From Eubacteriales bacterium (GTDB lineage: Bacteria; Bacillota; Clostridia; Oscillospirales; CAG-382), in contig JAZSFD010000050.1 in NCBI GenBank assembly GCA_045532035.1, positions 6,751 through 70,750 on the forward strand: a DNA stretch of 64,000 nt. Direction: 5' to 3'. A model generated the notes under the pieces. The model saw nothing but the letters and a program-made list of their open reading frames with translations. It made no database searches and was not told the DNA's origin. Each line of letters opens with the position of its first letter. Position 1 is the first letter of the stretch. The position numbers and the translations under genes were made by a program. Shown piece after piece: positions 3,882 to 21,228 of this stretch.

Positions 3882-3895
3882 GTAATTTATTCGGA

Positions 3896-5424: not shown

Positions 5425-5468
5425 CGTGTCATCGGCAAATCACAAACACATATTTTTTCGAGGGTAAA

Positions 5469-6293
5469 ATGAACAAATACAAGCTTATTGCCTCAGATCT
5501 TGACGGCACCTTACTTGACAGCTCGGCTCGCATCAGCCGCCAAAACCTTGATGCCATAGACAAGCTTTCAGAAATGGGAGTTCACTTTGTCCCCTGCTCG
5601 GGCAGAACCTTTTCGGAGCTTCCCCAAGAGCTCAAGGACAACAAAAATATAAGATATGTGATCCATTCCAACGGCGCTGTTGTGTTTGACCGAAAGACAG
5701 GGAAACGCATACTTAACTGTATTCCAGGAGATCTTGTGTGCAAAATCCTTGATGCTTTACATTCCTTCAAGACCCACATCACATATCGGCTGAACGGCGA
5801 ATGCTTTGTGGATGCACGCTTTCAGGATGAGGCATCTTGGGACTATTACAATGTCTGCAAAGCTCACCGCACTGTGGTTCGTGATTTTGCCGTCTATCTT
5901 GAGGACTTCGATGAAAAAAGCTATGCCGCCGACAATGTGGAGGTTTTTGCCGCCTTTTTCCATGATTACTCCGAAAAGCTTGCCTGCATAAAACAGCTTG
6001 AAAAAGAGCCTCTTCTTCGTGTGGTCGAGCTTGATGAAAACAACATTGAGGTGATGAGTGCTTCTGCAGGAAAAGGAAACGCTCTTATGGCTCTTGCAAA
6101 AATGCTCGGCATTGATATTTCCGAAACCATGAGCCTTGGCGACAGCAGAAATGATATCAGCATCACACAGACCGCAGGGCTCGGTCTTGCCATGTCAAAC
6201 GCCTGGGAAACTCTGAAAAATCTTGCCGACAAGATCATCTGCTCAAACGACGAGCACGCCATAGCTTATGTTCTTGAGCACTATTTTTCATAA
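5469..6293 (+). CDS. Cof-type HAD-IIB family hydrolase (sugar phosphatase-like)
   Basis: 274 aa. Has the DLDGTLL motif I, a SGR motif, and the C-terminal GDSRNDISI motif. Confidence 0.9.
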   Translation: MNKYKLIASDLDGTLLDSSARISRQNLDAIDKLSEMGVHFVPCSGRTFSELPQELKDNKNIRYVIHSNGAVVFDRKTGKRILNCIPGDLVCKILDALHSFKTHITYRLNGECFVDARFQDEASWDYYNVCKAHRTVVRDFAVYLEDFDEKSYAADNVEVFAAFFHDYSEKLACIKQLEKEPLLRVVELDENNIEVMSASAGKGNALMALAKMLGIDISETMSLGDSRNDISITQTAGLGLAMSNAWETLKNLADKIICSNDEHAIAYVLEHYFS

Positions 6294-6305
6294 AGGAGAA
6301 CCATA

Positions 6306-6788
6306 ATGCTTTCAGTCGATCTCATATATCTCGGAAACGAGAAGGAAAAATACTACAACGAAGCCGCCGACGAATATATAAGAAGGCTTTCGGCGTTCTG
6401 CTCTTTCAAGCAAAAGAATATCAAGGATGAGCGGCTTTCAAATGAACCGTCGCAAAACGAGATCAATGCCGCCCTTGAAAAGGAGAGCAAAAAAATATCC
6501 GAGGCTCTTCCCGAAAGAAGCTATAAGATTGCCATGTGCGTCGAAGGAAAGCAGATGTCGTCGGAGGAGCTTGCCGCTCTTTTCGAATCGTTGCCGTCAA
6601 GAGGATACTCGGGTGTTTCTTTTGTCATCGGAAGCTCCTGCGGACTTGCGGAAAGTGTGAAAAAATCCTGCGATCTGCGCCTTTCGGTGTCAAAAATGAC
6701 TTTTCCCCACAAGCTTTTCCGCGTGATGCTGCTCGAACAGATCTATCGCGCTTTCACCATCAATGCGGGAAGCAAGTATCATAAATAG
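6306..6788 (+). CDS. rlmH: 23S rRNA (pseudouridine1915-N3)-methyltransferase RlmH (SPOUT)
   Basis: 160 aa. The C-terminus reads FVIGSSCGL...LSVSKMTFPHKLFRVMLLEQIYRAF, characteristic of RlmH. Confidence 0.93.
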   Translation: MLSVDLIYLGNEKEKYYNEAADEYIRRLSAFCSFKQKNIKDERLSNEPSQNEINAALEKESKKISEALPERSYKIAMCVEGKQMSSEELAALFESLPSRGYSGVSFVIGSSCGLAESVKKSCDLRLSVSKMTFPHKLFRVMLLEQIYRAFTINAGSKYHK

Positions 6789-6795
6789 CAATAAC

Positions 6796-6829
6796 ATACC
6801 CCATGTTTTCATGCGAAAACATGGGGTAT
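6796..6829. terminator. Strong hairpin between convergent rlmH and the GH31 gene (likely a bidirectional terminator)
   Basis: A perfect 15-bp stem ataccccatgttttc/gaaaacatggggtat has a 4-nt loop. The flanks are AT-rich but neither side has a long T-run. Confidence 0.6.
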
Positions 6830-6840
6830 AATTATATCTT

Positions 6841-8370
6841 TCATCGTCTTTCAAAATAAGGAAGAACAGATATGGGCGCGTCGACTGTAACAGTCTGTCC
6901 GCCCTCATATATTTTTTCGCCAAAGAGCGCCCATCTGCCCGCAGGAAGCTTTACTTCACGGGAAGTTTGCCCTTTTTTCAAAACAGGAGCCACAAGTATC
7001 TTGTCACCGAGCATAAACTGGTCGGTCACCTTTTCAAAGCCCTCTCCCGGGAATTCATATTCCATATATCTTGCAATAGGCTCACCTGTTTTGCCGGCGT
7101 TTTCGGCAAGGGTGAGGATGTAATAGGCGTACTGGGTGTGAAGTCGGGCTGCGCGCAGACAAAGGATGGCGTTTTCCTCCGAAAGCACACGCCAGGGAGC
7201 CACCGAAAACTGCATCATCGGCATGAGTGCCGCACACTGCGCATATCTTACCACAAGCTCTTCGTCGATTCTGTTCTCAAATCCCTCATTCGCAAAGAAA
7301 GAATACTCTCCCCCGCCGATCATGTCGGGGCAGGTATAGGCATAGCCCATAATACCCTGGGTAAGAGTGTTGGGAACAAGGCTCGCAAGTCCGTTTTTGT
7401 CCCAGGTGTGGAGCTTGTCGGAAAGCCTTTGCACAAGAGGATAACCCTGACAGCCGACACAGGCGCGGTATTCGTTGTATTTATAATTAAGTCCGAATTT
7501 TGCCCAAAGCTCCGAAAAAACATTCGGATCTGCCATGCCAAGAGATATCTTGTCGTTCACATAAAATTTTGCATCTCCCGCGTCAAATTTGAAGCCGTCG
7601 ATGCCGTATTTGTCACAAAGAGTGCGAAGCTTCACATCATACCAGAGAATGGCAAGAGGATTCGTCAGGTCAAGAGTCGCCGAATAACCGTCCCACCATT
7701 CGTGAAGCGATATTTTGCCGTCCTCGGTCTTGGTGAGAAGATCCTTGTCGCGAAGCTCTCTGAACTCGGCACTGTCGGGAGAAATATACGGGCACGACCA
7801 AAGCATGACCTTAAAGCCCATCGAATGAAGCTCCTCCACCATAGCTTTCGGGTCGGGGAATCTTTCGCGCTCAAATTCCCAGCAGCCGTAATATTTCTGC
7901 CAGCAGTCATCGATCATGAGAATGCCCGCAGGATATCCGTTATCGATAAGACCGTGGGCATATTTCAAAACATCCGCCTGATTCTGATTATATATCAGCT
8001 CGATCCAGGTATTATACTGGGGAGTTTCGAAAAACTCGCGGGGAGGAATACCCCTTTGAGGAAGAAAATGCTCTTTTGCCGCCGCAAGAAAAGCTTCCTT
8101 GAGCGTCTCGCCTGCTTCGATAAGCTCCACTGCGCTTTCGGTGGAAATTGTAAGCTTTCCGTCACGGGCGCAGATTGCAAAACAGCTGTCGCTGTAAATA
8201 TATCTTCCCTTATTGGAAATAAGTATGGGACAGACCTGGTTTCCCGTACTGTTCACGGTAAAATCTGCACAGTAATCGGAATCGGTTGTGATCGGAAAGC
8301 TTGTGCCGTCGTTGGCACAAAGGCCGTACCAGCTCTCGTTTTCTCTGAAATCCACATTATATGTATACAT
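6841..8370 (-). CDS. Glycoside hydrolase, family 31-like
   Basis: 509 aa. Contains ILMIDDCWQ, GIDGFKFDAGD and CPDMIGGG blocks that I associate with a GH31 subgroup. The exact specificity is unknown. Confidence 0.65.
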   Translation of the reverse strand: MYTYNVDFRENESWYGLCANDGTSFPITTDSDYCADFTVNSTGNQVCPILISNKGRYIYSDSCFAICARDGKLTISTESAVELIEAGETLKEAFLAAAKEHFLPQRGIPPREFFETPQYNTWIELIYNQNQADVLKYAHGLIDNGYPAGILMIDDCWQKYYGCWEFERERFPDPKAMVEELHSMGFKVMLWSCPYISPDSAEFRELRDKDLLTKTEDGKISLHEWWDGYSATLDLTNPLAILWYDVKLRTLCDKYGIDGFKFDAGDAKFYVNDKISLGMADPNVFSELWAKFGLNYKYNEYRACVGCQGYPLVQRLSDKLHTWDKNGLASLVPNTLTQGIMGYAYTCPDMIGGGEYSFFANEGFENRIDEELVVRYAQCAALMPMMQFSVAPWRVLSEENAILCLRAARLHTQYAYYILTLAENAGKTGEPIARYMEYEFPGEGFEKVTDQFMLGDKILVAPVLKKGQTSREVKLPAGRWALFGEKIYEGGQTVTVDAPISVLPYFERR

Positions 8371-8430
8371 ATCGTTCTCCTTTTGATAGAAAAACGGTCC
8401 GACGGAAAAACCTGCGGACCGTAAGCTTTT

Positions 8431-8874
8431 TTAGTTCTTTGCCTTGAGAAGATCGCGGATCTCTGTGAGAAGCTCTTCTTCCTTGGAGGGCTTGGGAGGC
8501 TCTGCAGGCTTCGCCGGTTCTTCTTCCTTCTTTTTGAGAGCTTCTGCCTTTTTGCGGATAGACGCAACGACCTTGACCATCATGAAAATGCAAATCGCAA
8601 TGATGAGAAAATCTATTACGGACTGGATAAACATACCGTAATTAAGGGTAAGTGCAGGGGTCACGACCGCTCCCGCTTCATCAAGCACTTCGGGCTTGAG
8701 TATTGCCTTGGCTTCGCTGAAATTGATTCCGCCTGTGACAACACTGATGAGAGGGGTGATGATGTTGTTGACAAGAGCTGTGACGATCTTGCCGAAAGCC
8801 GAGCCGATGATCATACCGACTGCCATGTCAATAACATTGCCTTTGGAAATAAACGCTTTGAAATCCTTGAACAT
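8431..8874 (-). CDS. mscL: Large-conductance mechanosensitive channel MscL
   Basis: 147 aa. The N-terminus reads MFKDFKAFISKGNVIDMAVGMIIGSAFGKIV, typical of MscL. Confidence 0.95.
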   Translation of the reverse strand: MFKDFKAFISKGNVIDMAVGMIIGSAFGKIVTALVNNIITPLISVVTGGINFSEAKAILKPEVLDEAGAVVTPALTLNYGMFIQSVIDFLIIAICIFMMVKVVASIRKKAEALKKKEEEPAKPAEPPKPSKEEELLTEIRDLLKAKN

Positions 8875-8909
8875 AATTATACTCCTTTATTCAAAAAATA
8901 TGGACTTTA

Positions 8910-9470
8910 TTATTCGTAGTATTCTCTCTTGAGAATGCCGACATAAGGAAGATCACGGTAAAGCTCGTCAAAATCGAGACCGTAGCCGATAACATATTCA
9001 TCGGGAATCGTAAAACAACCGAAATCGACCGAAATGGGCTTTTCGCGTCTGTCGGGCTTGTCAAGCAGAGTGCAGATCTTGATATCCCCTGCGTTGTGCT
9101 CTCTCTTTAAGTAGTCAACAAGCCAGAAAAGGGTGTTTCCGGTGTCAAGAATATCCTCGACGATAAGTACATTGTAATCTGAAAGATCCTTTTTCTCAAG
9201 GCCTGCCTTGATAACGATCTCTCCCGATGAAACAGCGCTTTTTCCGTAGGAGGAAAGACGCATGAAATCGACCTCCATGGGAAGGCGCACCGCCTTCATG
9301 AGATCTGCCATGAAGACCACCGAGCCCTTGAGTATTCCGAGCAGAAGCAGCTTCTTTTCGGAATCTCCGTAATAAGCCTCGATATCACGGGCAACCTCTG
9401 CCACCCTTGTTTTTATTTGTTCTTCGCTGCACAGTATTCTTTCAACTGCCCTTTCGTAATTACGATCCAT
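8910..9470 (-). CDS. hpt: Hypoxanthine phosphoribosyltransferase
   Basis: 186 aa. Has the PRPP-binding loop VLIVEDILDTGNTL and LLGILKGSVVFMADL. Confidence 0.95.
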   Translation of the reverse strand: MDRNYERAVERILCSEEQIKTRVAEVARDIEAYYGDSEKKLLLLGILKGSVVFMADLMKAVRLPMEVDFMRLSSYGKSAVSSGEIVIKAGLEKKDLSDYNVLIVEDILDTGNTLFWLVDYLKREHNAGDIKICTLLDKPDRREKPISVDFGCFTIPDEYVIGYGLDFDELYRDLPYVGILKREYYE

Positions 9471-9484
9471 AATAGCTCCCCGAA

Positions 9485-10252
9485 TTATTTATTTTCATTT
9501 GAAAGTCTTTCGTTGCGCTCGCGCTCTGCCTGCGAAAGGCGCAGATAAAGCGGAGAGAGTGCGCTTCCGCTGTATTCTTTTGCGTCAAAGGATGAGGATT
9601 TTATAATTTCATATCCTGCGCGCGCCACCGAAAAGCCGTCCTGCAAAAGATCTCCCGGCAAAGCCGGCGAAACATTCAGGCTTTTTCCGTCAAGATACTT
9701 TTCATAAAGGCTGTAAAAGAGTGCCGCTCCGTCGCCGCAAAGAACTATCTTCTTTTTGGGGTATTTTTCGCAAAGCTCATCTACAAGCTCCTTTGCCGTA
9801 ACAACGCGATCCTCGCACAGACGCTTTGGATGCTTGCTTTTCAGGCTGAAAAGCGCGTTGTAAAACTGCTCACGCCGTGCATCCATCAAAGGGCAGACAA
9901 GCGTGTTATCGCCGTAGGCGCAAAGATTCAGCGCCAGACAATAGAGTGTTGAAAGCGGGATGCAGGGCACGCTGTCTTCGCGCGAGAAAGCAAGACCTTT
10001 CACGGTTGAAACACCGATGCGCACTCCCGTAAACGAGCCGGGACCCGAGGTTATGGCAAAAGCATCCACCTGCGACAAAGAAACTCCTGCCAGAGACAGA
10101 GCCTCTCCTATCATGGGAAGAAGGCTTTCGCTGTGTGTCACTGTGCTGTTGAGCACAAGGCGCGAAACGGGCACAAGACCCTGAAGCGAGTCTTCTTTTG
10201 CAAGACAGACAGCGGCGGTTTTTGCAGTCGTATCGACCGAAAGTATATACAT
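9485..10252 (-). CDS. tsaB: tRNA threonylcarbamoyladenosine (t6A) biosynthesis protein TsaB
   Basis: 255 aa. Reads MYILSVDTTAKTAAV...ITSGPGSFTGVRIGVSTVKGLA (YeaZ/TsaB family). Confidence 0.9.
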   Translation of the reverse strand: MYILSVDTTAKTAAVCLAKEDSLQGLVPVSRLVLNSTVTHSESLLPMIGEALSLAGVSLSQVDAFAITSGPGSFTGVRIGVSTVKGLAFSREDSVPCIPLSTLYCLALNLCAYGDNTLVCPLMDARREQFYNALFSLKSKHPKRLCEDRVVTAKELVDELCEKYPKKKIVLCGDGAALFYSLYEKYLDGKSLNVSPALPGDLLQDGFSVARAGYEIIKSSSFDAKEYSGSALSPLYLRLSQAERERNERLSNENK

Positions 10253-10306
10253 GAAAATTCCTCTTGATAAGATCTTTTTAACTGTGCTTGACGCGGTAAC
10301 AAAACA

Positions 10307-10335
10307 ATTATACTATGCTTTGCGGCTTTTATCAA
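10307..10335 (-). promoter_or_regulatory. Sigma-A type promoter upstream of tsaB
   Basis: On the minus strand: TTGATA (10335-10330), a 17-nt spacer, then TATAAT (10312-10307). Confidence 0.6.
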
Positions 10336-10372
10336 GCGATTTTTTCAAAATTCGGCAAATTTCGCCGAAATT

Positions 10373-11386
10373 TTATTCGCTCTTCATTTCTGACAAAAGG
10401 ACATCGCGGTCTTTTGTCTGCATGACCTTGATGATGCCGTTGGCAACACAGTCAAGCGGGTCCTTTGAAACATAAACATTAAGGTGTGTCTTTTCGGCAA
10501 TAAGGGTATCTATTCCCGAAAGAAGAGCCCCTCCCCCCGTGAGCATGATGCCGTTGTCGTAAATATCCGAGCAAAGCTCGGGGGCTGTTGCCTCAAGGGT
10601 CGTTCTGATGACATCGATAATGGCGTTCAGCGGCTCCTCAAGGGCCTCTCGGATATCGCTGGAATAAACATTGAGTGCCGCAGGAAGTCCTGTCAGGATA
10701 TTTTTTCCCCTCACCTCGATAACGCCAAAATCGGTTGACGGATGTGCAGATCCGATGGCAATCTTAACATCCTCCGCGGTGGCATCACCGATGACGACAT
10801 TGAATTTTTTTCTGATATAGGAAGAGATCGCCTCGGTGCATTTATCTCCCGCAATGCGAAGGGATGCGGAATTTGCAATGCCACCCAGAGATATGACTGC
10901 AACCTCTGTGGTTCCGCCGCCGATATCCACCACCATACAGCCGCAGGCGGCTTTTATGGGAAGCCCTGCGCCAATGGCGGCCGCCACCGGCTCTTCTATC
11001 AGCGCAACGCTTTTTGCTCCCGCCTCAAGTGCTGCCTCCTGCACCGCTTTCTTTTCAACATCTGTCACTCCGTAAGGAATACAGATGATGATATTCGGTT
11101 TTGAGATGAGAATGCTGTTGCCGACGGCTTTTTTGATAAAGACCTTGAGCATTTCGCTGGTCAGCTCAAAATCGGCAATAACTCCCTCGCGCAAGGGGCG
11201 CATGGCGTTGATGTAAGGAGGGGTTTTGCCATACATGGTCTTTGCTTCGTCACCCACCGAAATGACATGGTTTGAGCGCGAATGATAGGTGACATAGGAG
11301 GGCTCGCGAATGATTATCCCGCCGTGCTTTGTGCAGACGAGAGTGTTCGCGGTTCCCAGATCTATTCCGATATAGCTTCCCGTCAT
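10373..11386 (-). CDS. mreB: Rod shape-determining actin-like protein, MreB/Mbl family
   Basis: 337 aa. Reads IGIDLGTANTLV...RPLREGVIADFELTSEMLKVFI...VVDIGGGTTEVAVISLGG. No mreC or mreD follows it. Confidence 0.93.
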   Translation of the reverse strand: MTGSYIGIDLGTANTLVCTKHGGIIIREPSYVTYHSRSNHVISVGDEAKTMYGKTPPYINAMRPLREGVIADFELTSEMLKVFIKKAVGNSILISKPNIIICIPYGVTDVEKKAVQEAALEAGAKSVALIEEPVAAAIGAGLPIKAACGCMVVDIGGGTTEVAVISLGGIANSASLRIAGDKCTEAISSYIRKKFNVVIGDATAEDVKIAIGSAHPSTDFGVIEVRGKNILTGLPAALNVYSSDIREALEEPLNAIIDVIRTTLEATAPELCSDIYDNGIMLTGGGALLSGIDTLIAEKTHLNVYVSKDPLDCVANGIIKVMQTKDRDVLLSEMKSE

Positions 11387-14300
11387 GCTTTTTCCTCCTC
11401 AAGCTTTCTGATCTTGTCAACGACCTTGGCAGGGTTCATGACAATATCGGTTTTGTCAACAAACAGTGTGTCATATCCTGCTCTTTTCAGTCTTGCTCTT
11501 TCATATGCCGCACCCGCAAGCACATTTTCGGTTATCACCGCATATTCGCACTCTCCCACAGTCACGACAGCGGTTTTTCTGTTCTCGGAAACTCTGACCT
11601 TGATACCGTTTTCCGACATGAGGCGACAGAATTCGATAAGGTAAATATCATATACAGTATAGGAATGCTCCTTTTCACCGCGGATAAGCCTTCCGCCGAC
11701 ACGAGCCGAGCTTAAAAAGGCAAAAAGATTAAGCGCACCGCTTGCCGCCACGGTCTCGGGATGTTTGTCGCAGGATGCCGACGACACGACAACTGTACGC
11801 TCGGCACCGCTTTCAAGCACAGCGTTCGAAAGCTCAAAGCCGCGGGCACAGCCTCTTTCTCTGTCGTCAATGACTCCGCAGGTCATACAGCCGCCCGTGA
11901 TGTCATCCTTGCCATAGACCGTCGAAACATAAAGAATGTCACACATTCCCTTAAGCTTTCCGCCGGCGTAAGAAATCTCGATCATGCCCGATTCATAGGC
12001 CTTTGCCACAGCCTCGCTCTTTTCCGCCACCGCAGACAAAACCTCAGCTATAGCACGGCACTGGTTTTCAGAGAATGTCACAACACCGATGCGAAGTCCG
12101 CTGTCAGCCTCAAGCTCCTTCATTATTTCAAGTCCCACCGTCTGCGCCTCAAGCACATTTGTGTGGCGTTCCTTGTCAAAGGAGGAAAGGGGTGATCTTA
12201 AAAATTCAAGCTTTCTGTTTCCTTCATACGAAGGGCTGTAGGCGGTGTTTTGATCATGAAGACTGTATATCGGAATACCCGCTCTTATGCAGTCAGAAGC
12301 AAAGCTGTCGTTTGCTTTTGACATTTCTCCGGCAAATACCAGCTTGTGTCTTGCCGCATTAAGTATCGGAAGAATTCGGGCAGTCGGAACAAAATGCGCC
12401 GAGCAGACGATCATGTTTTCAAAATCCGAAAGAATACCTGCATAATAAGGCTCGGCAATGATAATGGGGAAAAGTATTTTCACCGTGTCGCTGTGACGCA
12501 GGATCAGCTCCTGCGCCGAAACTCTCGGATCATCAAGTCCTGTCGAGAACGCCTTTGATCTTTCGGTGTTGGAATTGATGTGTCCGACACAGCTTTCAAC
12601 ATATGCAAGCTTGCGGGCATTGAGATTGCGCACAGCCTTTTCCTTTGAAAGCAGCGCATAGCGTGCGGCATCGCCGGAATAGTCATTCATCAAATAGAAG
12701 GTCTTGTCGTTGAGGGATATCTGCTTGAGCGCCAGAAACAGAAGCGAACGGGTGAATATTTTTTCGGTGTTCGCAGTGTATCGGTTGGTCTCAAGATATT
12801 TCACAAAGCAGGAAAGACCGCGCTTTTCACATTCGGCGGCGCATTTGTTATATTCAGCCACATCGGCAATCTGAGCCGACGCGCCTTTCCAATCGGAAAG
12901 CATTTTTCCGATTCCCTTTTCCGAAAAGATGCCTTCGTCAAAATTCATGTTGTAAAGGTCGGCGCCCAGCATCTTTGAAAGAGAAACAAAGCCTCCGTCA
13001 TCAGAAAACATTCTGTCAAAAACACCGGCGGTTCCTATCACCGACGCAAGATTCAGCTTGTCCGAGCAGAACCGGTGAGCCGACGGGAATTTTTCGGCGG
13101 CATCATGACGCGCCTTTGAATCGGTGCCGTAGATCTTTTTGAGAAGCACATCCGCCATCTTGACGAAATCCACAAGCTTTGCAATTCTGCTCCAGTCCGA
13201 AAGGACTCCTTTCCAATAGCCTGCAAAGAGCTTTTGCATTTCTTCTTCAGCCACGGAAAATTCCGCAATCATTTTTTCACGCTCCGCAAGCACGCTCAAA
13301 GCCTCGGGAACGCTCTTTTTCACAATATCGGACGAGACGGCGGCAGTGCGGAAGGCGTTCAGCTTCTTTGTTATTTCGGAATGGCTCATTTCTCCTCTGC
13401 TTGTCCATTCCACGAAAAGCTCGCCCGCGGGCAGTTCATAAATGCCCTTGTCAAACTCACAAAGCTCTCTTTCACATTCAGCAATCTTTGAGGACAAAGC
13501 TCTTAGATTTGCAACATTTTTTGATACCGAATAAATATCCGAACAAAGAAGCTCGGGCGTTATTTCGCTGTTGTATTCCTTCGAAATGAGCACATTCAGC
13601 GAAAGATATGCATGAACCGACGGAAGATTCTTCAATGAGTCGATATCAAAGCCTGTGTTTTCGGCAATGCTTTTGCATCCGCGCGCAAGCTCCGAAAGGT
13701 CGGCTCCACACTTTTCGGCAAGATGGATAAATGTACGGCTGTCGGGAATCTCTCCCGTAAGGTGCGCTCTGAAAAGAGGATGCTTCGAAAAGCCCTCCTT
13801 CAGCGACAGCCTTGATGCCGCACGGCAAAGAGCCAGCTGAGATGCGAAAATCGCCTCGGTGCTTTCCCCTGAAAGATCGGGGAAAAACACCGTTTCGGGT
13901 TCAAGGCAGATTTCTTTTTCCTGCGCCGACAAGCCTGCGCCTGCATTTATATAAGCCCTTGCCGCCTCGTCAAACGAGAAGGCAAAGCTGTAATGCTTGT
14001 TTTTGGCTGCATAGTATTTTACAAATTTATCACGCAGCTGAGAAATGTCGCCGTCGTCCGACTCTATGTTCAGCGGAACAGGTATCTGAGAAAGGGAGAT
14101 CAGCTTGCTTCTGATGCTCTCTTTTATGTCGGTGTCCGACGAAAGAACAAGCACCGCGTTGTCAAGACCGAGTTTTTGGAATTCGCGCAGTATCGCACGC
14201 CTTTCGTCACGGTTTTCCGAAACGATGACGGCGGGACCTGCCTGTTTCAGACAGTCACAGGCAACAGCTGTTGAGATACGGCACTGCTTTATAAAATCGG

Positions 14301-16092
14301 CTCCCGTGACCATGACATCACGGTCCTTTGCATATGATGCGGCAAAAAGCTCCTTTGCCGAAAAAAGATCGGGCGCACCGAAAGCTGCCGCCCCCGCGTC
14401 GCTTGTGTTTTCGGCGGGAAGATACTCGTTTTCTTTTTCCCCGGGGTCAAGAATTGAACAGGAAAGCGGATCTGCCATGATCCTTTCATATCGGTCGATC
14501 ATGTAGAACGAAATCAGGCTGTCCTTGCACTCAAATCTGCCAAGCATCGTATCGCGGGAAAGGGTATATTCACCGCCGGTCAACTTGCAGAAGCTTTCAA
14601 AACAATCGATAATGTTGTCAAGATTTCCTGCAGGAAGTCGGTATTCATCAAAAAATTTCTTTCCGTCCGGGGTCGACCTCAGCTTTTCGCAGACAAGACG
14701 GTTGATATACGGCTTTGGAGACAAAAATTCAAAATATATAAGACTGTCGGTGACAGAAAGCTTTACCGGATAAAAAGCAAGCGGCGCATTGAAGAAGCCC
14801 GAACAAAGCTTTCCGCAGGCAAGATACAGCTCTCCCCTCTTTTCGCGCACAAGAGCCTTTGCCAAAGCTGACACCTCCGAAAAATCGGCAGAATGCTGAT
14901 CGAGCGCATCGGCAACAATGATCCTGTCTCCAAAGAAAGCGCTTTCGGTCACCTTTGAAAGCTCCGAAAAGCCCACGGGAATTCCGCCCGAGAATTTCAG
15001 AAGCGACGAATTTTCCGAATCACAAAGGCTTTCGGCAAGCTCCGAAAGATTTTTGTGTTTTCTTTTTTTCTTTTCGCGCAAGGGGGAGATGAGCTTTTCT
15101 GTCTTTTCTTCAAGCTCTCTGTCGGCACAGGCAACAGCAATCCCCTGCGAATATGCCGCGCAGATATCAACGGCATACACCGTCTCTTCCTCGGTTATTT
15201 TTTCATATGCGTCTCTCACCGCATCGTCAAGCTCAATGCTGTGACCGGTGAAAAGGCAGGAAACATCAAAAAGTGTCAGCTCTCCGGCATCGTATGCCGC
15301 ACGAAGCTTTTCGCCCGAGGTGCAAACGGGAAGACCGAAGACATTCTTTTCCCGGACAACTCCGCAGAGTATTCTCGGTGCTTTTTTGCCCTTAAGAACG
15401 GCAAGAGCAGGAAAAAGACCTGCGCGAAGAGCGCATGAGCAGTATATCAGAGCCATTTCAAGGGGAGATACCATGGCAGAGCGTTTTGTGAGCAGCGTTC
15501 CTATATCTTCAAAAGCCACATCGTGCGAAACAAAATCGCATTCGCGCACCGAATACACAATGCGTCGGCTGCGCAAAGCGTCATAAAGTCCCGAAAGATC
15601 GCGGCATTCGGGAAGAGTTGCTATTTTTTCGATCTCGGGATGGCAGGGAGAGAGAACAGATGCAAAAACGACAGGAGATGCGCAAGACGGAAAAACATTC
15701 GCAGGCAAAAGCTTCATCGGCGCATCGCCCATGTATTTCGTCCCGTCGACCGTCACTTCAACGCAGAGCTTTCCGGGAACGGGCGCCTTGAGATTGCGGA
15801 AAAAGTCAGTTTTCACCGCAAGGGGTGCGAAGGAAAAATCCAAAAAGGCCATGTCAAGCCCTTTTTCGCAAATTATCTCGCCCGAAAAAGCAGGTGTTCT
15901 TTCAATAAAGAATCCCGCCTTCGAAAGTCCGTATATATTGACCGTCACATTATACACCCTCGGCTCTGTCAGTCCTCCGATGCGAAGCTGTGCCAAAGGT
16001 GCACCGCCTGCCGCAAGGACAGCCAGCGAAAAAACCGGGCAGACAATGGGAGTCACGGTTATTTTGTTTTCTGTTTCTGTCAAATTACTCAT
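11383..16092 (-). CDS. Very large (about 1569 aa) DUF4011/Upf1-like SF1 helicase-nuclease homologue with degenerate catalytic motifs; function unknown
   Basis: The ORF is open from 11383 to 16134. I prefer the ATG at 16092 (MSNLTETENK) because AGAGGA lies 9 nt upstream. The stop overlaps the mreB start as ATGA at 11383-11386. Colinearity with helicase families is judged by eye. There is no GxxxxGK[ST] anywhere in the protein. Confidence 0.8.
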   Translation of the reverse strand: MSNLTETENKITVTPIVCPVFSLAVLAAGGAPLAQLRIGGLTEPRVYNVTVNIYGLSKAGFFIERTPAFSGEIICEKGLDMAFLDFSFAPLAVKTDFFRNLKAPVPGKLCVEVTVDGTKYMGDAPMKLLPANVFPSCASPVVFASVLSPCHPEIEKIATLPECRDLSGLYDALRSRRIVYSVRECDFVSHDVAFEDIGTLLTKRSAMVSPLEMALIYCSCALRAGLFPALAVLKGKKAPRILCGVVREKNVFGLPVCTSGEKLRAAYDAGELTLFDVSCLFTGHSIELDDAVRDAYEKITEEETVYAVDICAAYSQGIAVACADRELEEKTEKLISPLREKKKRKHKNLSELAESLCDSENSSLLKFSGGIPVGFSELSKVTESAFFGDRIIVADALDQHSADFSEVSALAKALVREKRGELYLACGKLCSGFFNAPLAFYPVKLSVTDSLIYFEFLSPKPYINRLVCEKLRSTPDGKKFFDEYRLPAGNLDNIIDCFESFCKLTGGEYTLSRDTMLGRFECKDSLISFYMIDRYERIMADPLSCSILDPGEKENEYLPAENTSDAGAAAFGAPDLFSAKELFAASYAKDRDVMVTGADFIKQCRISTAVACDCLKQAGPAVIVSENRDERRAILREFQKLGLDNAVLVLSSDTDIKESIRSKLISLSQIPVPLNIESDDGDISQLRDKFVKYYAAKNKHYSFAFSFDEAARAYINAGAGLSAQEKEICLEPETVFFPDLSGESTEAIFASQLALCRAASRLSLKEGFSKHPLFRAHLTGEIPDSRTFIHLAEKCGADLSELARGCKSIAENTGFDIDSLKNLPSVHAYLSLNVLISKEYNSEITPELLCSDIYSVSKNVANLRALSSKIAECERELCEFDKGIYELPAGELFVEWTSRGEMSHSEITKKLNAFRTAAVSSDIVKKSVPEALSVLAEREKMIAEFSVAEEEMQKLFAGYWKGVLSDWSRIAKLVDFVKMADVLLKKIYGTDSKARHDAAEKFPSAHRFCSDKLNLASVIGTAGVFDRMFSDDGGFVSLSKMLGADLYNMNFDEGIFSEKGIGKMLSDWKGASAQIADVAEYNKCAAECEKRGLSCFVKYLETNRYTANTEKIFTRSLLFLALKQISLNDKTFYLMNDYSGDAARYALLSKEKAVRNLNARKLAYVESCVGHINSNTERSKAFSTGLDDPRVSAQELILRHSDTVKILFPIIIAEPYYAGILSDFENMIVCSAHFVPTARILPILNAARHKLVFAGEMSKANDSFASDCIRAGIPIYSLHDQNTAYSPSYEGNRKLEFLRSPLSSFDKERHTNVLEAQTVGLEIMKELEADSGLRIGVVTFSENQCRAIAEVLSAVAEKSEAVAKAYESGMIEISYAGGKLKGMCDILYVSTVYGKDDITGGCMTCGVIDDRERGCARGFELSNAVLESGAERTVVVSSASCDKHPETVAASGALNLFAFLSSARVGGRLIRGEKEHSYTVYDIYLIEFCRLMSENGIKVRVSENRKTAVVTVGECEYAVITENVLAGAAYERARLKRAGYDTLFVDKTDIVMNPAKVVDKIRKLEEEKA

Positions 16093-16138
16093 CTGCAACA
16101 ATCCTCTAAACCATTGATTTACATACTTATACAATTAT

Positions 16139-16167
16139 AGTATAACAAATTTCAAGGCGTATTTCAA
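16139..16167 (-). promoter_or_regulatory. Sigma-A type promoter of the large-protein/mreB unit
   Basis: On the minus strand: TTGAAA (16167-16162), a 17-nt spacer, then TATACT (16144-16139). It lies just downstream of a terminator. Confidence 0.6.
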
Positions 16168-16179
16168 CTGTTTTGCGCG

Positions 16180-16213
16180 AAAAAATACAGAAACGCGTCG
16201 ATTGCGTTTCTGT
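16180..16213 (-). terminator. Rho-independent terminator (ends the upstream decarboxylase operon or a small RNA)
   Basis: A 10-bp stem acagaaacgc/gcgtttctgt with a 7-nt loop is followed on the minus strand by ATTTTTT. Confidence 0.8.
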
Positions 16214-16513
16214 CAGTTTATAGATAAGGTATTTTTCAAACAATTTTGAGGGAAACCCCCAGCGAGGGTTTCCCTCTTGCACTGCGTGCAATTCACCCTT
16301 CCTGCGCTTTCTGTAGCATAAAAAAGATGTTTCGCTCTCTGCGGAGAGCGACCAAAGGCGCCGCGGAAGTTTGCATACAAACTTCTAAAGTTGCTACGCA
16401 ACTTCCACTTTGGAAACCGAAACCTTTTTGAAAAAAGGTTTATCGAAAACTTTCATTAGGTTTGCAACTCGCTCACAGAACCGCATTGGTGCGTTCCTGT
16501 ATTTTCACATATT

Positions 16514-17863
16514 TCATTCTTCAACAACTTCGATCTCAAAAATTCCGTATTTTTTGAAAAGCTTTACCGAATTTTCGGTTATCCTCTCGCCGCTGATGAC
16601 AATGGGAATGGCAGGAGGGCAGGACACCGCAGGACATCCGCAGACCTTGCCGCAAGCCTCATCAACCGGAACCTTTTTCCTCGGTGCAAAGATCGCCTCT
16701 CTTATCGACATCACCTTTTCGCCGGCTTGTGTCGTCATGCTTTCGGATCTGCCGGGCTCTTTTGCCAAAAGGCTTTCAAAAGCCTTTTCCAGACGGCAAA
16801 AATCCTCTTCGGAATTGTGAACCGCCGCCATCAGCACAAGGTGATCCTCGTCACAGAATTCGATCTCGATGCCCATTGTGCGCAGATGCTCCTCAAGCTC
16901 TTGCGAAAGATACCCCGATTTTTTTGTATCAACAACAAGCTTCAAGGCTTCGTTTCCCGAAAGGGCAAAGCCCTTTGAGCGCAGAAGCTTTTTCACTTTC
17001 TCAAGTCTTTTCGCCGCAATTTCAAGCTTTTGTGTGAAACCGTCAGCAAGAAACGCGTTACAGCTGTCAAGCGATTGCAGGATAAGATACGACGGGCTTG
17101 TGGAAGCAAAAACCGACAGCATATTGCGGGCATTCCGCAAAAAAGCATTCTCTGCCTTTTTTGATATGTGAAGATAAGCACCGCCCGTAAGGACAGGCAA
17201 GGTCTTGTGCGCCGAATCACAGCACATCCGGGCGCCGAGCGTTATGGGGTGAATATCCTCTTTCAGAAATTTCAGATATGCTCCGTGGGCATTATCCACA
17301 AGAAGCGGAACACCAAAGCTGTCGCAAACCCTTGCAATACCCGAAATGTCGGCAATGTTTCCGAGATAATCGGGAGAGGTCAGATATACGGCACAAGGCT
17401 TTTCCGAAAGATTTTCCAACACCTCTTTCACATCGTCGGCGTCTATGGGGCAGGAGCAAAGCTCTCCGCCGTCTTTAGGATAAAGCCAGATAACATCAAT
17501 ATCAAGCAGTGCACAGCTGTAAACAAACGCCTTGTGAGCGTTGCGGGCGGCAAGAATCGTCTTTTTTCCCTTTTTTCCGTTCACCGCAAGTGCAAGCATT
17601 CCTTTTATGGCAAGGGATGACCCTTCTGTCGAATAAAAGGTGTGGGCGGTGTCGAAAAGCCTTGTGGCGTTTTCTTCGCTTTCGGCGATGATGCCGTCGG
17701 CGGAATACAAAACATCCGCACCCGAAATTTCGGTTATATCAAGCTCTTCGCAACCCAAAACATTTTTTCCCTTGTGTCCCGGCATATGAAAACGGGAAAA
17801 GGAGCTGTCCTTATAGCTCGCCACAAAATCGCAGATGGGAGTTGTGACCTTTTTTTCGTTCAT
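16514..17863 (-). CDS. Orn/Lys/Arg decarboxylase family PLP-dependent enzyme (YaaO/SpeA-like fold-I)
   Basis: 449 aa. Reads FHMPGHKGK...STEGSSLAIKGM...DSAHKTLPVLTGGAYLHI. The start is 1 nt after the scfB stop. Confidence 0.9.
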   Translation of the reverse strand: MNEKKVTTPICDFVASYKDSSFSRFHMPGHKGKNVLGCEELDITEISGADVLYSADGIIAESEENATRLFDTAHTFYSTEGSSLAIKGMLALAVNGKKGKKTILAARNAHKAFVYSCALLDIDVIWLYPKDGGELCSCPIDADDVKEVLENLSEKPCAVYLTSPDYLGNIADISGIARVCDSFGVPLLVDNAHGAYLKFLKEDIHPITLGARMCCDSAHKTLPVLTGGAYLHISKKAENAFLRNARNMLSVFASTSPSYLILQSLDSCNAFLADGFTQKLEIAAKRLEKVKKLLRSKGFALSGNEALKLVVDTKKSGYLSQELEEHLRTMGIEIEFCDEDHLVLMAAVHNSEEDFCRLEKAFESLLAKEPGRSESMTTQAGEKVMSIREAIFAPRKKVPVDEACGKVCGCPAVSCPPAIPIVISGERITENSVKLFKKYGIFEIEVVEE

Positions 17864-17864: not shown

Positions 17865-19244
17865 TCATTCTTCGTCGCCCGACTGCGCCACCTGCATCAT
17901 GACGGCACACTCAATTCGCTTTTTGAAAAGCTCGCAACCGTATTCATAAATGCCGTTCACGCTGCCTGTGGCATGGTACGCGTTGGCGGCGCATCCGCCC
18001 GAGCAATAAAGGCGTGCCCAGCAATCCTTACATTCTTCTCTGGCGTAAGCGTTGCATGAGCGGAACTCGTCCTGAACCTTTTTGTTGGTGACTCCGTCCC
18101 AGATGTTTCCAAGACTGTATTTTTCGTCGCCGACAAACTGATGACAGGGATAAAGCTCGCCCCAGGGGGTGACCGCCATATATTCGGTGCCCGAGCCGCA
18201 GCCGGTGATGCGCTTGTAGATACAGGGGCCGTTTTTCAGGTCAAGCATATAGTGATAGAAGGTGAAGGGTCTTCCCTCTTTTTTGCGCTTTATCATCTCT
18301 TTTGCAAGTATTTCATACTGCTCAAAGAGCTTGGGAAGATCCTCATCCGTCAAAGCATATGGGTCATCGGGAGGACAAACGACAGGCTCCATCGAAAGCT
18401 CTGTGAATCCGAGGTCTGCCATATGGAAAATGTCGTTTGTAAAGTCAACATTCTGATGGGTAAAGGTTCCGCGCATATAATAACCTTTGCCGCCGCGGGC
18501 ATCCACAAGCTTTTTGAACTTGGGAAGTATTCTGTCGTAGCTTCCGTTGCCGGCATAGTCTTTTCTGAAATGGTCATGTACCTCGCGGCGTCCGTCAAGG
18601 CTGAGAACCACATTGCTCATCTCTTTGTTGAGAAAATCGATGACCTCGTCGTCGATAAGCAAGCCGTTTGTGGTAAGGGTAAAGCGGAAATTCTTGTTAT
18701 GCTCCTTTTCGACACTTCTGGCATATGCCACAAGCTGTTTTACCGCATCCCAGTTCATAAGCGGTTCGCCGCCGAAAAAGTCGACCTCGAGATTGCGGCG
18801 GTTGCCGGAATTGGCAACAAGAAAATCAAAAGCCTGCTTTCCGACCTCAAAGCTCATGACTGCCCGATCGCCCTGATATTTTCCCTGGCTTGCAAAGCAA
18901 TAGGAGCAGTTGAGATTGCAGGTGTGCGCCACATGAAGGCACATCGCCTTTATAACATTCGAATTGTTCTTGTAATTATAGGCAAGCTCTTCATATTCAT
19001 CCTTGGAAAAAAGCTTTCCTCTTTCCTCAAGAGCTTCGATATCTCCGATGCATTCGAGAATCTCTTCGCGCGTCACATCGGTAAGCTCCTTGTATTTTTC
19101 AAGCATAGCGGACACGATCTCTTCCTGCGACGAAGTCTTATACATCGAAATGATGTCATACGCCACCTCATCCACCGTGTGCACCGAGCCCGAGCAGGTG
19201 TCGAGCACGATATTGTAGCCGCCAAGTTTATACTGATGTACCAT
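17865..19244 (-). CDS. scfB: Radical SAM/SPASM thioether cross-link-forming SCIFF peptide maturase
   Basis: 459 aa. Has the CNLNCSYC radical SAM cluster motif and a C-terminal SPASM Cys-rich region (CGSG...CHQF...CKDCWARLYCSGGCAANA). It sits immediately downstream of a SCIFF precursor gene. Confidence 0.9.
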   Translation of the reverse strand: MVHQYKLGGYNIVLDTCSGSVHTVDEVAYDIISMYKTSSQEEIVSAMLEKYKELTDVTREEILECIGDIEALEERGKLFSKDEYEELAYNYKNNSNVIKAMCLHVAHTCNLNCSYCFASQGKYQGDRAVMSFEVGKQAFDFLVANSGNRRNLEVDFFGGEPLMNWDAVKQLVAYARSVEKEHNKNFRFTLTTNGLLIDDEVIDFLNKEMSNVVLSLDGRREVHDHFRKDYAGNGSYDRILPKFKKLVDARGGKGYYMRGTFTHQNVDFTNDIFHMADLGFTELSMEPVVCPPDDPYALTDEDLPKLFEQYEILAKEMIKRKKEGRPFTFYHYMLDLKNGPCIYKRITGCGSGTEYMAVTPWGELYPCHQFVGDEKYSLGNIWDGVTNKKVQDEFRSCNAYAREECKDCWARLYCSGGCAANAYHATGSVNGIYEYGCELFKKRIECAVMMQVAQSGDEE

Positions 19245-19329
19245 GATTACCTCTTAAAAATGTATGTAATAATACGAAACGCTGTCCTTTCGTCAAAAAA
19301 GACAGCGTTCTTATCAGAAAAACCAATAA

Positions 19330-19476
19330 TTATTTATTCTGATTTTCGCATTGCTGGTTTGCAACGCCGCAAGAAGTCTTGCAAGCCGACTGGCAGGATG
19401 TCTGGCATTCGCCGCAGCCGCCGTTCTTAACAGTCTTTGCAATGTCCTTTGTTTCGATGGTCTTGATTCTGCTCAT
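19330..19476 (-). CDS. scfA: SCIFF (six-cysteines-in-forty-five) ribosomal peptide precursor
   Basis: 48 aa: MSRIKTIETKDIAKTVKNGGCGECQTSCQSACKTSCGVANQQCENQNK. The GGCGECQTSCQSACKTSC core is the SCIFF signature. GGAGG lies 8 nt upstream of the ATG at 19476. The track ORF (from 19518) carries a 14-aa false extension. Confidence 0.92.
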   Translation of the reverse strand: MSRIKTIETKDIAKTVKNGGCGECQTSCQSACKTSCGVANQQCENQNK

Positions 19477-19600: not shown

Positions 19601-20410
19601 TTATTCGCTCTCTTTTCCGAGCCTTCTGCCGAATTCAAAGCCGATTATGGCGCAGGTGGAGGCTGTGGGAAGCGAGAACTTTGCGTCAGAAAAATAGGGG
19701 ATGCTGACGATGTCGTCACAGTTTTTCACAAAATCGGGAGAAATCCCACGCTTTTCACCGCCCACAAAAAGAACTGCAGGAAAGGTCGGTTCAAAATCAA
19801 AAAGCTCTGTGCAATCGGCAGTTTTTGCGGCACAAACTGTCGAAAAGCCCGCCTTTTTAAGCATTTTCATGAAATCGACATGGTCTTTTTCGCTCGTCAT
19901 CTCGGGCATGACCGCAATGTCGCACATTTCTGTTGCTCCTGCCGATGACCTTGCGCAGACTCCTGCCGCCGACATCCAGTTTCGGCGCGGGACAATGATA
20001 CCCGTCGCCCCTGCCGCATAAAGATTTCTGACCGAATATCCGAAATTGAAAGGATCCTCGACCCCGTCAAGAAGTGCGGCAAATCCGCCTTTTTTGGCAA
20101 TTTTTGCAAGAAGCTCGTCAATCGGTGTGAAGCGTCTTTCTCCGCAGACCGCGGCGATTCCCCCATGGGAGGAGCCTGCGTCATCGTTTTTTTCAAGGAA
20201 AGCGTCAATGACCTGTCTTTCGCATATTTCGGCGGTGATTCCCTCATCCTTCAGAAGCTTCAGGAAGGACAAAACCTTTCTGTCACGCTTTCTGACCTTT
20301 TCGGCATCCACATAGCAAAGATCTATCCTGCGGCTTTTATACTTTATTGCAGCGCTTACAGAGATGATTCCCTCAAGGATACAAACGCCGTCATTTCCGG
20401 AGAAAGTCAT
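19601..20410 (-). CDS. TrmH/SpoU family RNA 2'-O-methyltransferase
   Basis: 269 aa. Reads LDGVEDPFNFGYSVRNLYAAGATGIIV...LFVGGEKRGIS...IPY...SLPTASTCAII. Confidence 0.85.
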   Translation of the reverse strand: MTFSGNDGVCILEGIISVSAAIKYKSRRIDLCYVDAEKVRKRDRKVLSFLKLLKDEGITAEICERQVIDAFLEKNDDAGSSHGGIAAVCGERRFTPIDELLAKIAKKGGFAALLDGVEDPFNFGYSVRNLYAAGATGIIVPRRNWMSAAGVCARSSAGATEMCDIAVMPEMTSEKDHVDFMKMLKKAGFSTVCAAKTADCTELFDFEPTFPAVLFVGGEKRGISPDFVKNCDDIVSIPYFSDAKFSLPTASTCAIIGFEFGRRLGKESE

Positions 20411-21228
20411 TGCTGGTTCTCCGTTTCGGGAGCTTCCGCGGAGGGCTCTTCAATAAAGATCACTCCGTCGCGGAAGGTACCCTCATATTTTCTTGCGTTA
20501 GGCGCAGGCCATGTATAAACGCCCTTGCCATGCTTCTTGTTGTTTTTGAATTCACCCACATAGGTTTCGCCGTTGGCATAAACATATGTACCCGAACCCT
20601 CACGCAGATCGTTTACAAATTCGCCTGTGTATTTATCACCGTTTGCATAGGTGATGCTTCCGGTGCCGTTTTTCATATCGTCGGCATATTCTCCGACATA
20701 TGTCGTGCCGTCAGCGCTTTTGTAAGTGCCCGAGCCGTGCTTTTTGTTGGCAACAAAGCCACCTGTGTATACCGAGCCGTCGCTCCAGGTAAATGTGCCC
20801 TCGCCTTCTTTTTTGCCGTTTACGAAATCGCCCTCATAGGTGTCGCCGAATGCAGTCTTGAGAAAGCCTTTTCCGTTTATGATATCGTTTTCAAATTCAC
20901 CGTCATAAACCTCGCCGTCGACAAGAGTAAGAACTCCTTTTCCGTGGCGGTAAAAGCCCGAAAACTCACCGTAATAGCTGTCTCCGTTTTCGTATTCAAT
21001 GGTGCCGAGCGTTCTGTCGAGCTTTGCTTTTTTGCCGTCGGGAAAGACAAGCGTTCCACTGACCACAATGCCGTCGGAGGTCTTCCCGTAAAACTTTGTG
21101 CCGTTATCGGCAACGATATATCTGAAGCCGAGAATATTGATGACAATGCCTGCCACGGCAAGCAGCACAAGAGCCGCCGCAATCACTGCAAGCCAGATAT
21201 TCAGCTTCATTTTTACACTTCTTCTCAT
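20407..21228 (-). CDS. Membrane-anchored MORN repeat protein
   Basis: 273 aa. An N-terminal TM helix is followed by about 8 tandem YxGEFxxxxxxGxG MORN-type repeats, for example YEGDFVNGKKEGEGTFTWSDGSVYTGGFVANKKHGSG. Confidence 0.85.
   Translation of the reverse strand: MRRSVKMKLNIWLAVIAAALVLLAVAGIVINILGFRYIVADNGTKFYGKTSDGIVVSGTLVFPDGKKAKLDRTLGTIEYENGDSYYGEFSGFYRHGKGVLTLVDGEVYDGEFENDIINGKGFLKTAFGDTYEGDFVNGKKEGEGTFTWSDGSVYTGGFVANKKHGSGTYKSADGTTYVGEYADDMKNGTGSITYANGDKYTGEFVNDLREGSGTYVYANGETYVGEFKNNKKHGKGVYTWPAPNARKYEGTFRDGVIFIEEPSAEAPETENQQ

Follow-up and report, generated by a model that had tools for sequence, protein, structure and literature searches.

A catalytically degenerate relative of ProA/Hhe-type helicase-nucleases is genetically linked to an MreB-family actin in uncultured Clostridia

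Introduction

The closest described relatives of the protein reported here are the anti-phage proteins of the ProA (NCBIfam NF058533) and Hhe (NCBIfam NF042953) type and the PADLOC candidate PDC-S37. They belong to a superfamily marked by the DUF4011 domain, in which a Upf1-like helicase of superfamily 1B (SF1B) is combined with a nuclease of the PD-(D/E)xK fold. Here we analyze a 64,000-nt stretch of DNA (the window; contig JAZSFD010000050.1, assembly GCA_045532035.1), in which the gene for a 1569-residue protein (11383–16092; hereafter the large protein) overlaps a downstream gene for a 337-residue actin of the MreB family (10373–11386), both on the minus strand. All coordinates of window features are window-based. 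The modulators YodL and YisK act on MreB in Bacillus subtilis and, to our knowledge, few MreB partners (RodZ and MreC/MreD) are conserved across many genera. A helicase-nuclease that has lost its activities is known from RecC of the RecBCD complex, which contains a dead helicase of superfamily 1 (SF1) and an inactivated nuclease-like domain (PMC1185551).

We find that the large protein is a degenerate, mreB-linked branch of the known helicase-nuclease family, and we did not find the pair described in the literature. An original prediction, made by eye from the sequence, had reported a 4.7-kb gene for an inactive helicase-nuclease whose stop codon overlaps the start of an MreB paralogue. Both the gene and the ATGA overlap are present, and the partner is a bona fide MreB. 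A protein database search found an NCBI entry (P0001) with the same length and sequence as the product.

Results and Discussion

Relationship to helicase-nucleases

A Pfam scan of the large protein gave no hits at all, and the families PF13195, PF13086, PF13087 and PF18741 were missing even at E-values up to 1. A sequence search of the PDB was also empty. Matches to the two NCBIfam models are partial and miss the thresholds: ProA aligns with residues 639–1125 only (118.6 bits against a cut-off of 1500, E = 1.6e-34), and Hhe with residues 1309–1368 only (13.4 bits against a cut-off of 2000, E = 0.009). PDC-S37 matches the same middle stretch as ProA (E = 2.6e-17). Among 5.8 billion proteins, 15 close homologues were found, with 100–32% identity, lengths of ∼1570–1640 residues and no Pfam domains.

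The nearest outgroup, retrieved with a profile of these 15 homologues, consists of ∼2000-residue proteins that all contain DUF4011, AAA_11/AAA_12 (plus AAA_30 and/or AAA_19) and MTES_1575, most of them also with DUF3320. Three of these proteins (P0016, P0019 and P0025) pass the ProA equivalog cut-off with 1966–2311 bits. An hhalign comparison of the 15-member family with the active relatives gave a probability of 100% (E = 6.4e-55) over 1507 colinear columns, covering residues 9–1568 of the large protein. The Pfam and PDB scans are blind to this relationship; thus, the homology is visible only through profile-profile comparison.

Structure prediction leads to the same family. The AlphaFold2 models have predicted local distance difference test (pLDDT) scores of 84.6 for residues 1–420 and 83.4 for residues 400–1569, and two RecA-like domains, as in the SF1B fold, are present. 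A Foldseek search with the C-terminal model returned Aquarius, SETX, Dna2, Upf1, IGHMBP2, ZNFX1 and Sen1, each with a probability of 1.0 and E-values of 1e-6 to 1e-4; the active relatives match the same Upf1-like SF1B group by sequence. The large protein is, therefore, a branch of the DUF4011/ProA-Hhe superfamily of helicase-nucleases. The original prediction had described it as colinear with DUF4011/Upf1-like SF1 helicases that carry a C-terminal nuclease fold of the DUF559/Vsr-like type. The Pfam search offered nothing for this assignment, whereas the 1507 hhalign columns and the Foldseek matches confirm it, and the profile-profile alignment reproduces every block and motif that had been placed by eye.

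Loss of catalytic residues

None of the catalytic motifs of the active relatives is retained in the large protein. Walker A (motif I) changes from GPPGTGKSQ to TGADFIKQC, Walker B (motif II) from FDEASQ to VCSAHF, motif III from GDxKQLPP to FAGEMSKAN, and motif V from VQGDERD to LKGMCD. The WHYRSR block is absent. Motif VI, GGERRLNVAVTRAR in the active proteins, is unrecognisable, with the RRLNVAVTRAR block lost. In the nuclease domain, the D ... ECDG signature is replaced by T1511 ... ITEN. The pattern G-x4-GK[ST] has no match anywhere in the 1569 residues. The catalytic columns are variable among the 15 family members, so the replacements themselves are not conserved.

To place these changes in the wider family, we scanned 1.84 billion representative proteins exhaustively with HMMER, which yielded 2345 relatives at E-values up to 0.001. 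Intact helicase motifs are present in 136 of the 191 near-full-length relatives retrieved. The other 55 are long, catalytically dead proteins that make up the subfamilies F1 (19 clusters, including that of the large protein), F2 (19) and F3 (14), plus three singletons; identity between F1, F2 and F3 is ∼17%. None of the 55 pairs a canonical P-loop (GxxGxGK[ST]) with DEASQ, and those whose motifs were inspected also have no GDxxQLPP. The claim that every catalytic signature has been replaced thus extends to all aligned motif columns in all family members, and no overlooked intact P-loop or DExx was found in the aligned columns of the large protein.

The active proteins have 112 columns with a conservation of at least 95%, of which the dead ones keep about a third, none of them catalytic. 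The surviving columns are mostly structural Gly, Pro, Leu and Asn positions, and include N1312-x-x-E-A and IGVVTF-x-x-Q at the start of RecA-like domain 2A. Eight columns set the dead clade as a whole apart by their conservation; they make up no obvious new active site, which fits a scaffold. The AlphaFold2 model keeps the order of secondary structure elements in the P-loop region, in both RecA-like domains and in the nuclease core. By these sequence and model criteria, the large protein is a predicted pseudo-enzyme, which has lost the residues for ATP binding, ATP hydrolysis, the arginine finger and nuclease activity, and has kept its multidomain fold.

The gene is under strong purifying selection. 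Between two F1 loci with 88% DNA identity (L007 and L011), the ratio of nonsynonymous to synonymous substitution rates (dN/dS) is 0.086 overall and 0.04–0.11 per domain; the linked mreB has a value of 0.007 in the same comparison. Intact open reading frames of ∼1600 codons occur in all three subfamilies. Together with the dN/dS of 0.086, they rule out a pseudogene or decaying gene.

Linkage to mreB

The dead genes are consistently followed by mreB. In subfamily F1, mreB lies directly 3′ in all 11 distinct loci that reach the 3′ end of the gene (the window included). The junction is an ATGA overlap in ten of them and TAATG in one, with an internal Shine-Dalgarno sequence in each. Both F2 loci have mreB on the 3′ side, after gaps of 67 and 20 nt, followed by tsaB, hpt and mscL. 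The four F3 loci, all from metagenomes, have it a few tens of nucleotides 3′. In total, mreB is directly 3′ of the dead gene in 17 of 17 distinct loci. The 4-nt overlap is, therefore, a feature of F1 as a whole and not of one strain, and the discrete pair that had been proposed from the window alone extends to two further subfamilies at ∼17% identity.

The wider flanks of the F1 loci vary, with genes for beta-galactosidase, ROK kinase, aspartyl-tRNA synthetase and radical SAM proteins. The linkage persists where the tsaB/hpt flanks differ (L003, L005 and L018–L021). Between the same genomes, the MreB proteins are 79–96% identical and the large proteins 32–72%. No mreB was found near active ProA-like relatives in the three loci examined.

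In a neighbour-joining tree, the dead proteins cluster together in 100 of 100 bootstraps. The MreB-linked set, without the homologue P0193, is recovered in 97 of 100, with P0193 outside it. P0193 (L017, 5001–10022) is a 1673-residue protein that has lost the helicase motifs and still gives a Pfam hit to MTES_1575. No mreB lies beside its gene, which is followed by a gene for a 139-residue protein. From its position at the base of the dead clade, P0193 could be an evolutionary intermediate. The simplest history is one inactivation, capture beside mreB, and long vertical maintenance.

Organization of the bicistron

The large gene begins with an ATG preceded by an AGAGGA ribosome-binding site. 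At the coupling junction (11383–11398, minus strand), its TGA stop codon (11385–11383) shares the sequence ATGA with the ATG of mreB (11386–11384), and the Shine-Dalgarno sequence of mreB, GGAGG (11394–11398), lies 7 nt 5′ of that ATG, within the 3′ end of the large gene. A consensus scan located the promoter at 16139–16167 (minus strand), where it had been predicted. It is of the sigma-A type, TTGAAA-17-TATACT, with an extended −10 TG and matches at 10 of 12 consensus positions. The terminator reported upstream was located as well: a terminator-like hairpin with a T-run, at 16187–16213 (minus strand), ends the upstream transcription unit, and a second terminator-like hairpin lies at 16248–16276 (minus strand).

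The downstream boundary (10307–10369, minus strand) consists of a weak hairpin (10351–10369) and then the promoter of tsaB, TTGATA-17-TATAAT (10307–10335, minus strand; 11 of 12 consensus matches), which is separate from the bicistron. The next gene 3′ of mreB is tsaB (TIGR03725), followed by hpt. Neither mreC nor mreD lies directly 3′ of mreB, so the arrangement is not that of an MreB-MreC-MreD operon. There is no second mreB in the 64-kb window, and an Rfam scan of 10000–16600 gave no match to a regulatory RNA. The description of the pair as a discrete bicistron stands, given that tsaB has its own promoter, that mreC and mreD do not follow, and that the pair is conserved across loci.

The promoter itself is conserved. 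The motif TTGAAA-17-TGTTATACT is kept 5′ of every F1 homologue, with flanking DNA that cannot be aligned. Its extended form, GTTGAAA-N-AAATTTGTTATACT, is near-invariant in F1 loci (window 16093–16167; L001, L003, L005–L009, L011, L012 and L014) whose proteins are just 32–72% identical. A GTAT(A/T) element ∼8 nt 3′ of the motif is also near-invariant in F1 and could indicate an operator or a conserved start of transcription. The upstream regions of F2 and F3 contain an analogous element, TTGCAA-17-TG(G/T)TAT(C/A)AT. The conserved motifs of the three subfamilies point to sigma-A-dependent transcription, and a promoter of this type by itself makes no case for sporulation-specific expression. From these signals, the large gene and mreB are predicted to form a co-transcribed unit across the dead clade and to be translationally coupled in F1.

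The linked MreB

The 337-residue product scores 428.7 bits against PF06723 (MreB_Mbl), 452.5 against PRK13927 (cut-off 293) and 418.8 against TIGR00904 (cut-off 365.75). Its nucleotide-binding motifs DLGTANT, DIGGGTTE and LTGGGA are intact, and its identity to the Geobacillus MreB of known structure (7ZPT) is 58% (185 of 318 aligned positions, E = 8e-103). It also keeps the hydrophobic α2-β7 loop, which anchors Gram-positive MreB to membranes (PMC10718530). Since Firmicutes ancestrally have mbl in synteny with spoIIID, spoIID and murA (PMC8136486), the linked MreB may, by analogy, be an Mbl-type paralogue.

Domain organization of the large protein

All domains of the large protein are encoded on the minus strand. 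An Ig-like β-sandwich (residues ∼10–130; 15703–16065), homologous to the ProA N-terminus, is modeled with pLDDT >90. A Foldseek search with the N-terminal model gave just weak, generic matches to Ig-like adhesin repeats or carbohydrate-binding module repeats. It is followed by an α/β domain (residues ∼136–330; 15103–15687), seen by hhalign and in the AlphaFold2 model. In the active proteins this domain has the motif GTCLDL...GHA and sub-threshold Pfam matches to Transglut_core (E = 0.021) and DUF553 (E = 0.04–0.07). In the large protein the motif reads SPLEMA...KAPRILCG, with the Cys and His replaced, and Pfam gives no match. Because the transglutaminase-like hits are below threshold, the fold assignment is tentative. 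The N-terminus, of ∼330 residues, had been left without an assignment in the original prediction, and it in fact aligns with the ProA-type N-terminus from residue 9.

As a side observation, the ProA-type N-termini of P0016 and P0019 show both GTCLDL...GHA and the sub-threshold transglutaminase-like hits. This combination makes it possible that ProA proteins carry an unrecognised cysteine-protease-like domain, which would also be inactivated in the dead clade.

The DUF4011-like domain (residues ∼401–560; 14413–14892) retains ELYLACG, APLAFYPV and NRLVCEKL, and its G427, P437 and N464 are conserved in dead and active proteins. The N-terminal half of RecA-like domain 1A (residues ∼561–655; 14128–14412) holds the Walker A site, with the strand-loop-helix kept in the AlphaFold2 model. 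Domain 1A is then split by an all-helical module of ∼550 residues (∼656–1207; 12472–14127), modeled as helices and common to ProA. This module, described earlier as a helical insertion of ∼450 residues, is larger than had been thought and not private to the large protein. It is an ancestral module of the ProA family that matches ProA positions 713–1195, and is the part of the protein that matches ProA best. The C-terminal half of 1A (residues ∼1208–1300; 12193–12471) contains the Walker B and motif III sites. Domain 2A (residues ∼1301–1470; 11683–12192) retains TNVLEAQT and IGVVTFSENQ, and has lost motifs V and VI. The protein ends with a degenerate PD-(D/E)xK fold of the MTES_1575/Vsr-like type (residues ∼1471–1569; 11386–11682), in which the order α-β-β-β-α-β is kept in the model. 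A DUF3320 tail, as found in the active relatives, is missing.

Conservation differs among these domains. Mean pairwise identity within the family is 46–47% in the N-terminal domains and the helical module, and lowest, 30–36%, in the former enzymatic cores. The N-terminus and the helical module are, thus, modules inherited from the active ProA family and the best-conserved parts of the protein. With a pI of 5.5 (4.7–4.9 for domains 1A and 2A), the large protein is acidic, and no membrane segment was predicted. A comparison of per-domain net charge between dead and active proteins was uninformative, in part because the MAFFT domain boundaries are imprecise.

Hosts and genomic context

All hosts are metagenome-assembled genomes of uncultured Clostridia/Oscillospiraceae, from animal colon where the source is stated, and all have sporulation genes. 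Subfamily F1 is present in 8 of 185,579 GTDB species representatives. In the window, the pair is flanked on one side by glyQS, rlmH and genes for a HAD hydrolase and a GH31 glycosidase, as well as hpt and tsaB. On the other side are genes for a pyridoxal phosphate-dependent decarboxylase, a SCIFF maturase, a SpoU methylase, a MORN-repeat protein, a ParB-like protein and SpoVAC. The locus is, therefore, an ordinary housekeeping region in the chromosome of a spore-former. The housekeeping neighbours, a GC content like that of the rest of the window, and the lack of matches to the large gene in plasmid and phage collections rule out an origin as a mobile element.

Elsewhere, some loci lie close to sporulation genes. 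Three of the four F3 loci (L019–L021, ∼2100–10000) have the gene order spoIIGA, sigE, dead helicase-nuclease, mreB, gpmI (iPGM), and spoIIID lies ∼3.5 kb upstream of the pair in the F1 locus L003. In L019–L021, the pair occupies the usual position of sigG after sigE, and a SleB-like gene is found further upstream on the opposite strand. A mobile-element remnant (HTH_17, DUF6291 and an IstB_IS21-like ATPase; L016, 172–2082) lies ∼3 kb 5′ of one F2 pair, which retains its mreB-tsaB-hpt-mscL context despite this remnant.

Several neighbours in the window deserve mention in their own right. A SCIFF (six-cysteines-in-forty-five) peptide system at 17865–19476 (minus strand) comprises the precursor MSRIKTIETKDIAKTVKNGGCGECQTSCQSACKTSCGVANQQCENQNK (∼19330–19476) and, directly 3′ of it, a radical SAM/SPASM maturase (17865–19244, minus strand; TIGR03974, 770 bits). 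A further group at 20407–22828 (minus strand) is made up of a MORN-repeat protein (20407–21228), a 210-residue protein without Pfam domains (21225–21857) and, upstream, a ParB-like protein (21881–22828). Their junctions overlap or nearly overlap, and no ParA gene was noted beside them. A regulator with WYL/WCX domains (2545–3531, plus strand) adjoins an AraC-family regulator (1663–2532); WYL regulators are frequent controllers of defence or DNA-damage genes.

Proposed function

We propose that the large protein, which would be soluble with a mass of 175 kDa, is co-produced with MreB, to which it would bind, and that it would serve the membrane-associated MreB filament as a scaffold or regulator without enzymatic activity. 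The likely contact surfaces would be the N-terminal Ig-like and α/β domains and the ∼550-residue helical module, and the likely process cell-envelope growth or morphogenesis. Judging from the gene linkage, it is somewhat probable that the large protein complexes with MreB and acts on it through these conserved non-catalytic modules. We suggest more tentatively, and would not yet call it probable, that a single inactivation of an immune-type helicase-nuclease was followed, within a clade of spore-forming Clostridia, by its domestication as a stoichiometric partner dedicated to the MreB filament, an immune-type protein having become a cytoskeletal accessory factor. No function for such a pair was known to the original prediction, and the literature search likewise found none: no paper that treats DUF4011 together with MreB, no description of such a pair, and nothing relevant on MreB with pseudo-enzymes, helicase-like proteins or sporulation.

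Several observations weigh against this proposal. The partnership is deduced from gene linkage, and an operon could mean co-regulation only. Just eight columns are specific to the dead clade as a whole, and we see no common motif that would be an obvious candidate for MreB binding. The grouping of the dead proteins into a single clade could be inflated by long-branch attraction between fast-evolving sequences. The tsaB and hpt flanks are often syntenic too, so part of the linkage to mreB could be plain vertical synteny. Every host is uncultured. Finally, one family member, P0008, has the string AENVNGKT (∼residue 658), which fits [AG]x4GK[ST] near the former Walker A site. As a P-loop, this string is two residues out of register and without a Walker B, and it is probably a chance match.

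Some of these points would equally fit co-transcription without partnership, in which the large gene would simply use the same promoter as mreB and its product serve an unrelated structural purpose. Such an explanation agrees with gene linkage being the sole evidence of partnership and with the few residues conserved across F1, F2 and F3. However, it does not readily account for adjacency in 17 of 17 loci down to ∼17% identity and despite changes of flank, for the stop/start overlap and internal Shine-Dalgarno sequence maintained throughout F1, or for the absence of mreB beside the three active relatives examined. We regard it as unlikely.

The large protein could instead be a RecC-like adaptor, one that grips single-stranded DNA or RNA without ATP hydrolysis and tethers nucleic acid (the chromosome, an origin region or an mRNA, for example) to the MreB filament in the manner of ParR/ParM. 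The precedent is RecC, which still reads DNA although both its SF1 helicase and its nuclease domain are dead (PMC1185551). Both RecA-like domains, the DUF4011 domain, and N-x-x-E-A and IGVVTF-x-x-Q of domain 2A are retained, and the helicase-derived domains are under purifying selection (dN/dS 0.04–0.07). On the other hand, conservation is lowest in the helicase and nuclease cores (30–36% identity), and the protein is acidic overall (pI 5.5), domains 1A and 2A especially (pI 4.7–4.9). Upf1-like helicases use motifs Ia, III and V for contacts with nucleic acid, and the large protein has retained none of them; no repeated centromere-like site was noticed beside the operon, though no search for one was made. 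An adaptor of this kind thus seems improbable. By analogy with RecC, the large protein may still have residual nucleic-acid binding, so a role outside DNA metabolism is not established.

A sporulation-specific morphogenetic pair has also to be considered. Here, MreB would be of the Mbl type, and the pair would act in engulfment or in cortex/coat assembly rather than in vegetative growth. This idea draws on the sporulation genes of all hosts, the F3 pairs directly after spoIIGA-sigE (L019–L021), spoIIID ∼3.5 kb upstream in L003, the ancestral mbl synteny with spoIIID, spoIID and murA in Firmicutes (PMC8136486), and the lack of mreC and mreD after the mreB of the window. Sporulation genes are common in the host genomes, so that proximity to them is weak evidence. 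Moreover, the conserved promoter is a strong sigma-A-type promoter with an extended −10, not one for sigma-E, -F, -G or -K, and the neighbours in most F1 and F2 loci are tsaB and hpt. A role confined to sporulation is, in our judgment, doubtful.

Least likely of all is a degenerate defence module, either a sensor or decoy that guards MreB, which some phages exploit for genome replication, or an immunity protein that uses MreB as its partner: the only relatives are ProA/Hhe-type anti-phage proteins and PDC-S37, and the large protein evolves much faster than MreB (32–72% against 79–96% identity), but all ATPase and nuclease effector chemistry is lost, the sites are stable and chromosomal (by tsaB, hpt and mscL or by spoIIGA-sigE) with no defence island, the plasmid and phage collections searched hold no copies, a dN/dS of 0.09 gives no sign of an arms race, and the genes occur across the clade, apparently by vertical descent, instead of in patches.

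Significance and comparison with known systems

The mreB-linked dead clade with its three subfamilies is new here, and points to a possible partner of the bacterial cytoskeleton that has not been described before. If the proposed role as an MreB scaffold or regulator is true, the large protein would represent a class of giant (∼175-kDa) cytoskeletal accessory proteins not recognised before, and the first fold of a bacterial defence protein recruited to the cell-shape/morphogenesis machinery. A possible new MreB partner would offer a handle on the regulation of actin-like filaments in Clostridia, which are important in the gut and whose morphogenesis is poorly studied. It is also possible that the active ProA/Hhe defence proteins use their non-catalytic modules (the N-terminal domains and the helical module) as surfaces for binding other proteins.

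With ProA, Hhe and PDC-S37, the large protein shares the domain order of N-terminal β-sandwich, α/β domain, DUF4011, domain 1A split by a helical module, domain 2A and nuclease fold. Unlike ProA and Hhe, it has no catalytic motifs, no DUF3320 tail and no Pfam hit, its gene is followed by mreB, and its locus is a housekeeping one. Its best structural match is the two-RecA-domain fold of the Upf1-like SF1B helicases (Upf1, IGHMBP2, Sen1/SETX, Dna2, Aquarius and ZNFX1), from which it differs by the lack of motifs I, II, III, V and VI and by an identity of 12–14%.

RecC offers the parallel in the evolution of pseudo-enzymes: in both cases an SF1 helicase-nuclease architecture is retained as a non-catalytic scaffold in a larger machine, for the large protein as here proposed, and the anti-phage helicase-nuclease fold would be a further example of a fold kept under strong selection without its chemistry. 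However, no specific sequence relationship between the two is detectable, and RecC is a UvrD-like protein of superfamily 1A, whereas the large protein is Upf1-like SF1B. RecC also partners active helicases on DNA, whereas the large protein is linked to an actin homologue, a link known here from genes.

The comparison with established MreB partners is of another kind. Like RodZ, MreC/MreD and modulators such as YodL and YisK, the large protein has a genetic link to MreB, and the role proposed for it is likewise accessory or regulatory. It is unrelated to these proteins in sequence and fold, is ∼10 times the size of RodZ, and is predicted to be cytoplasmic.

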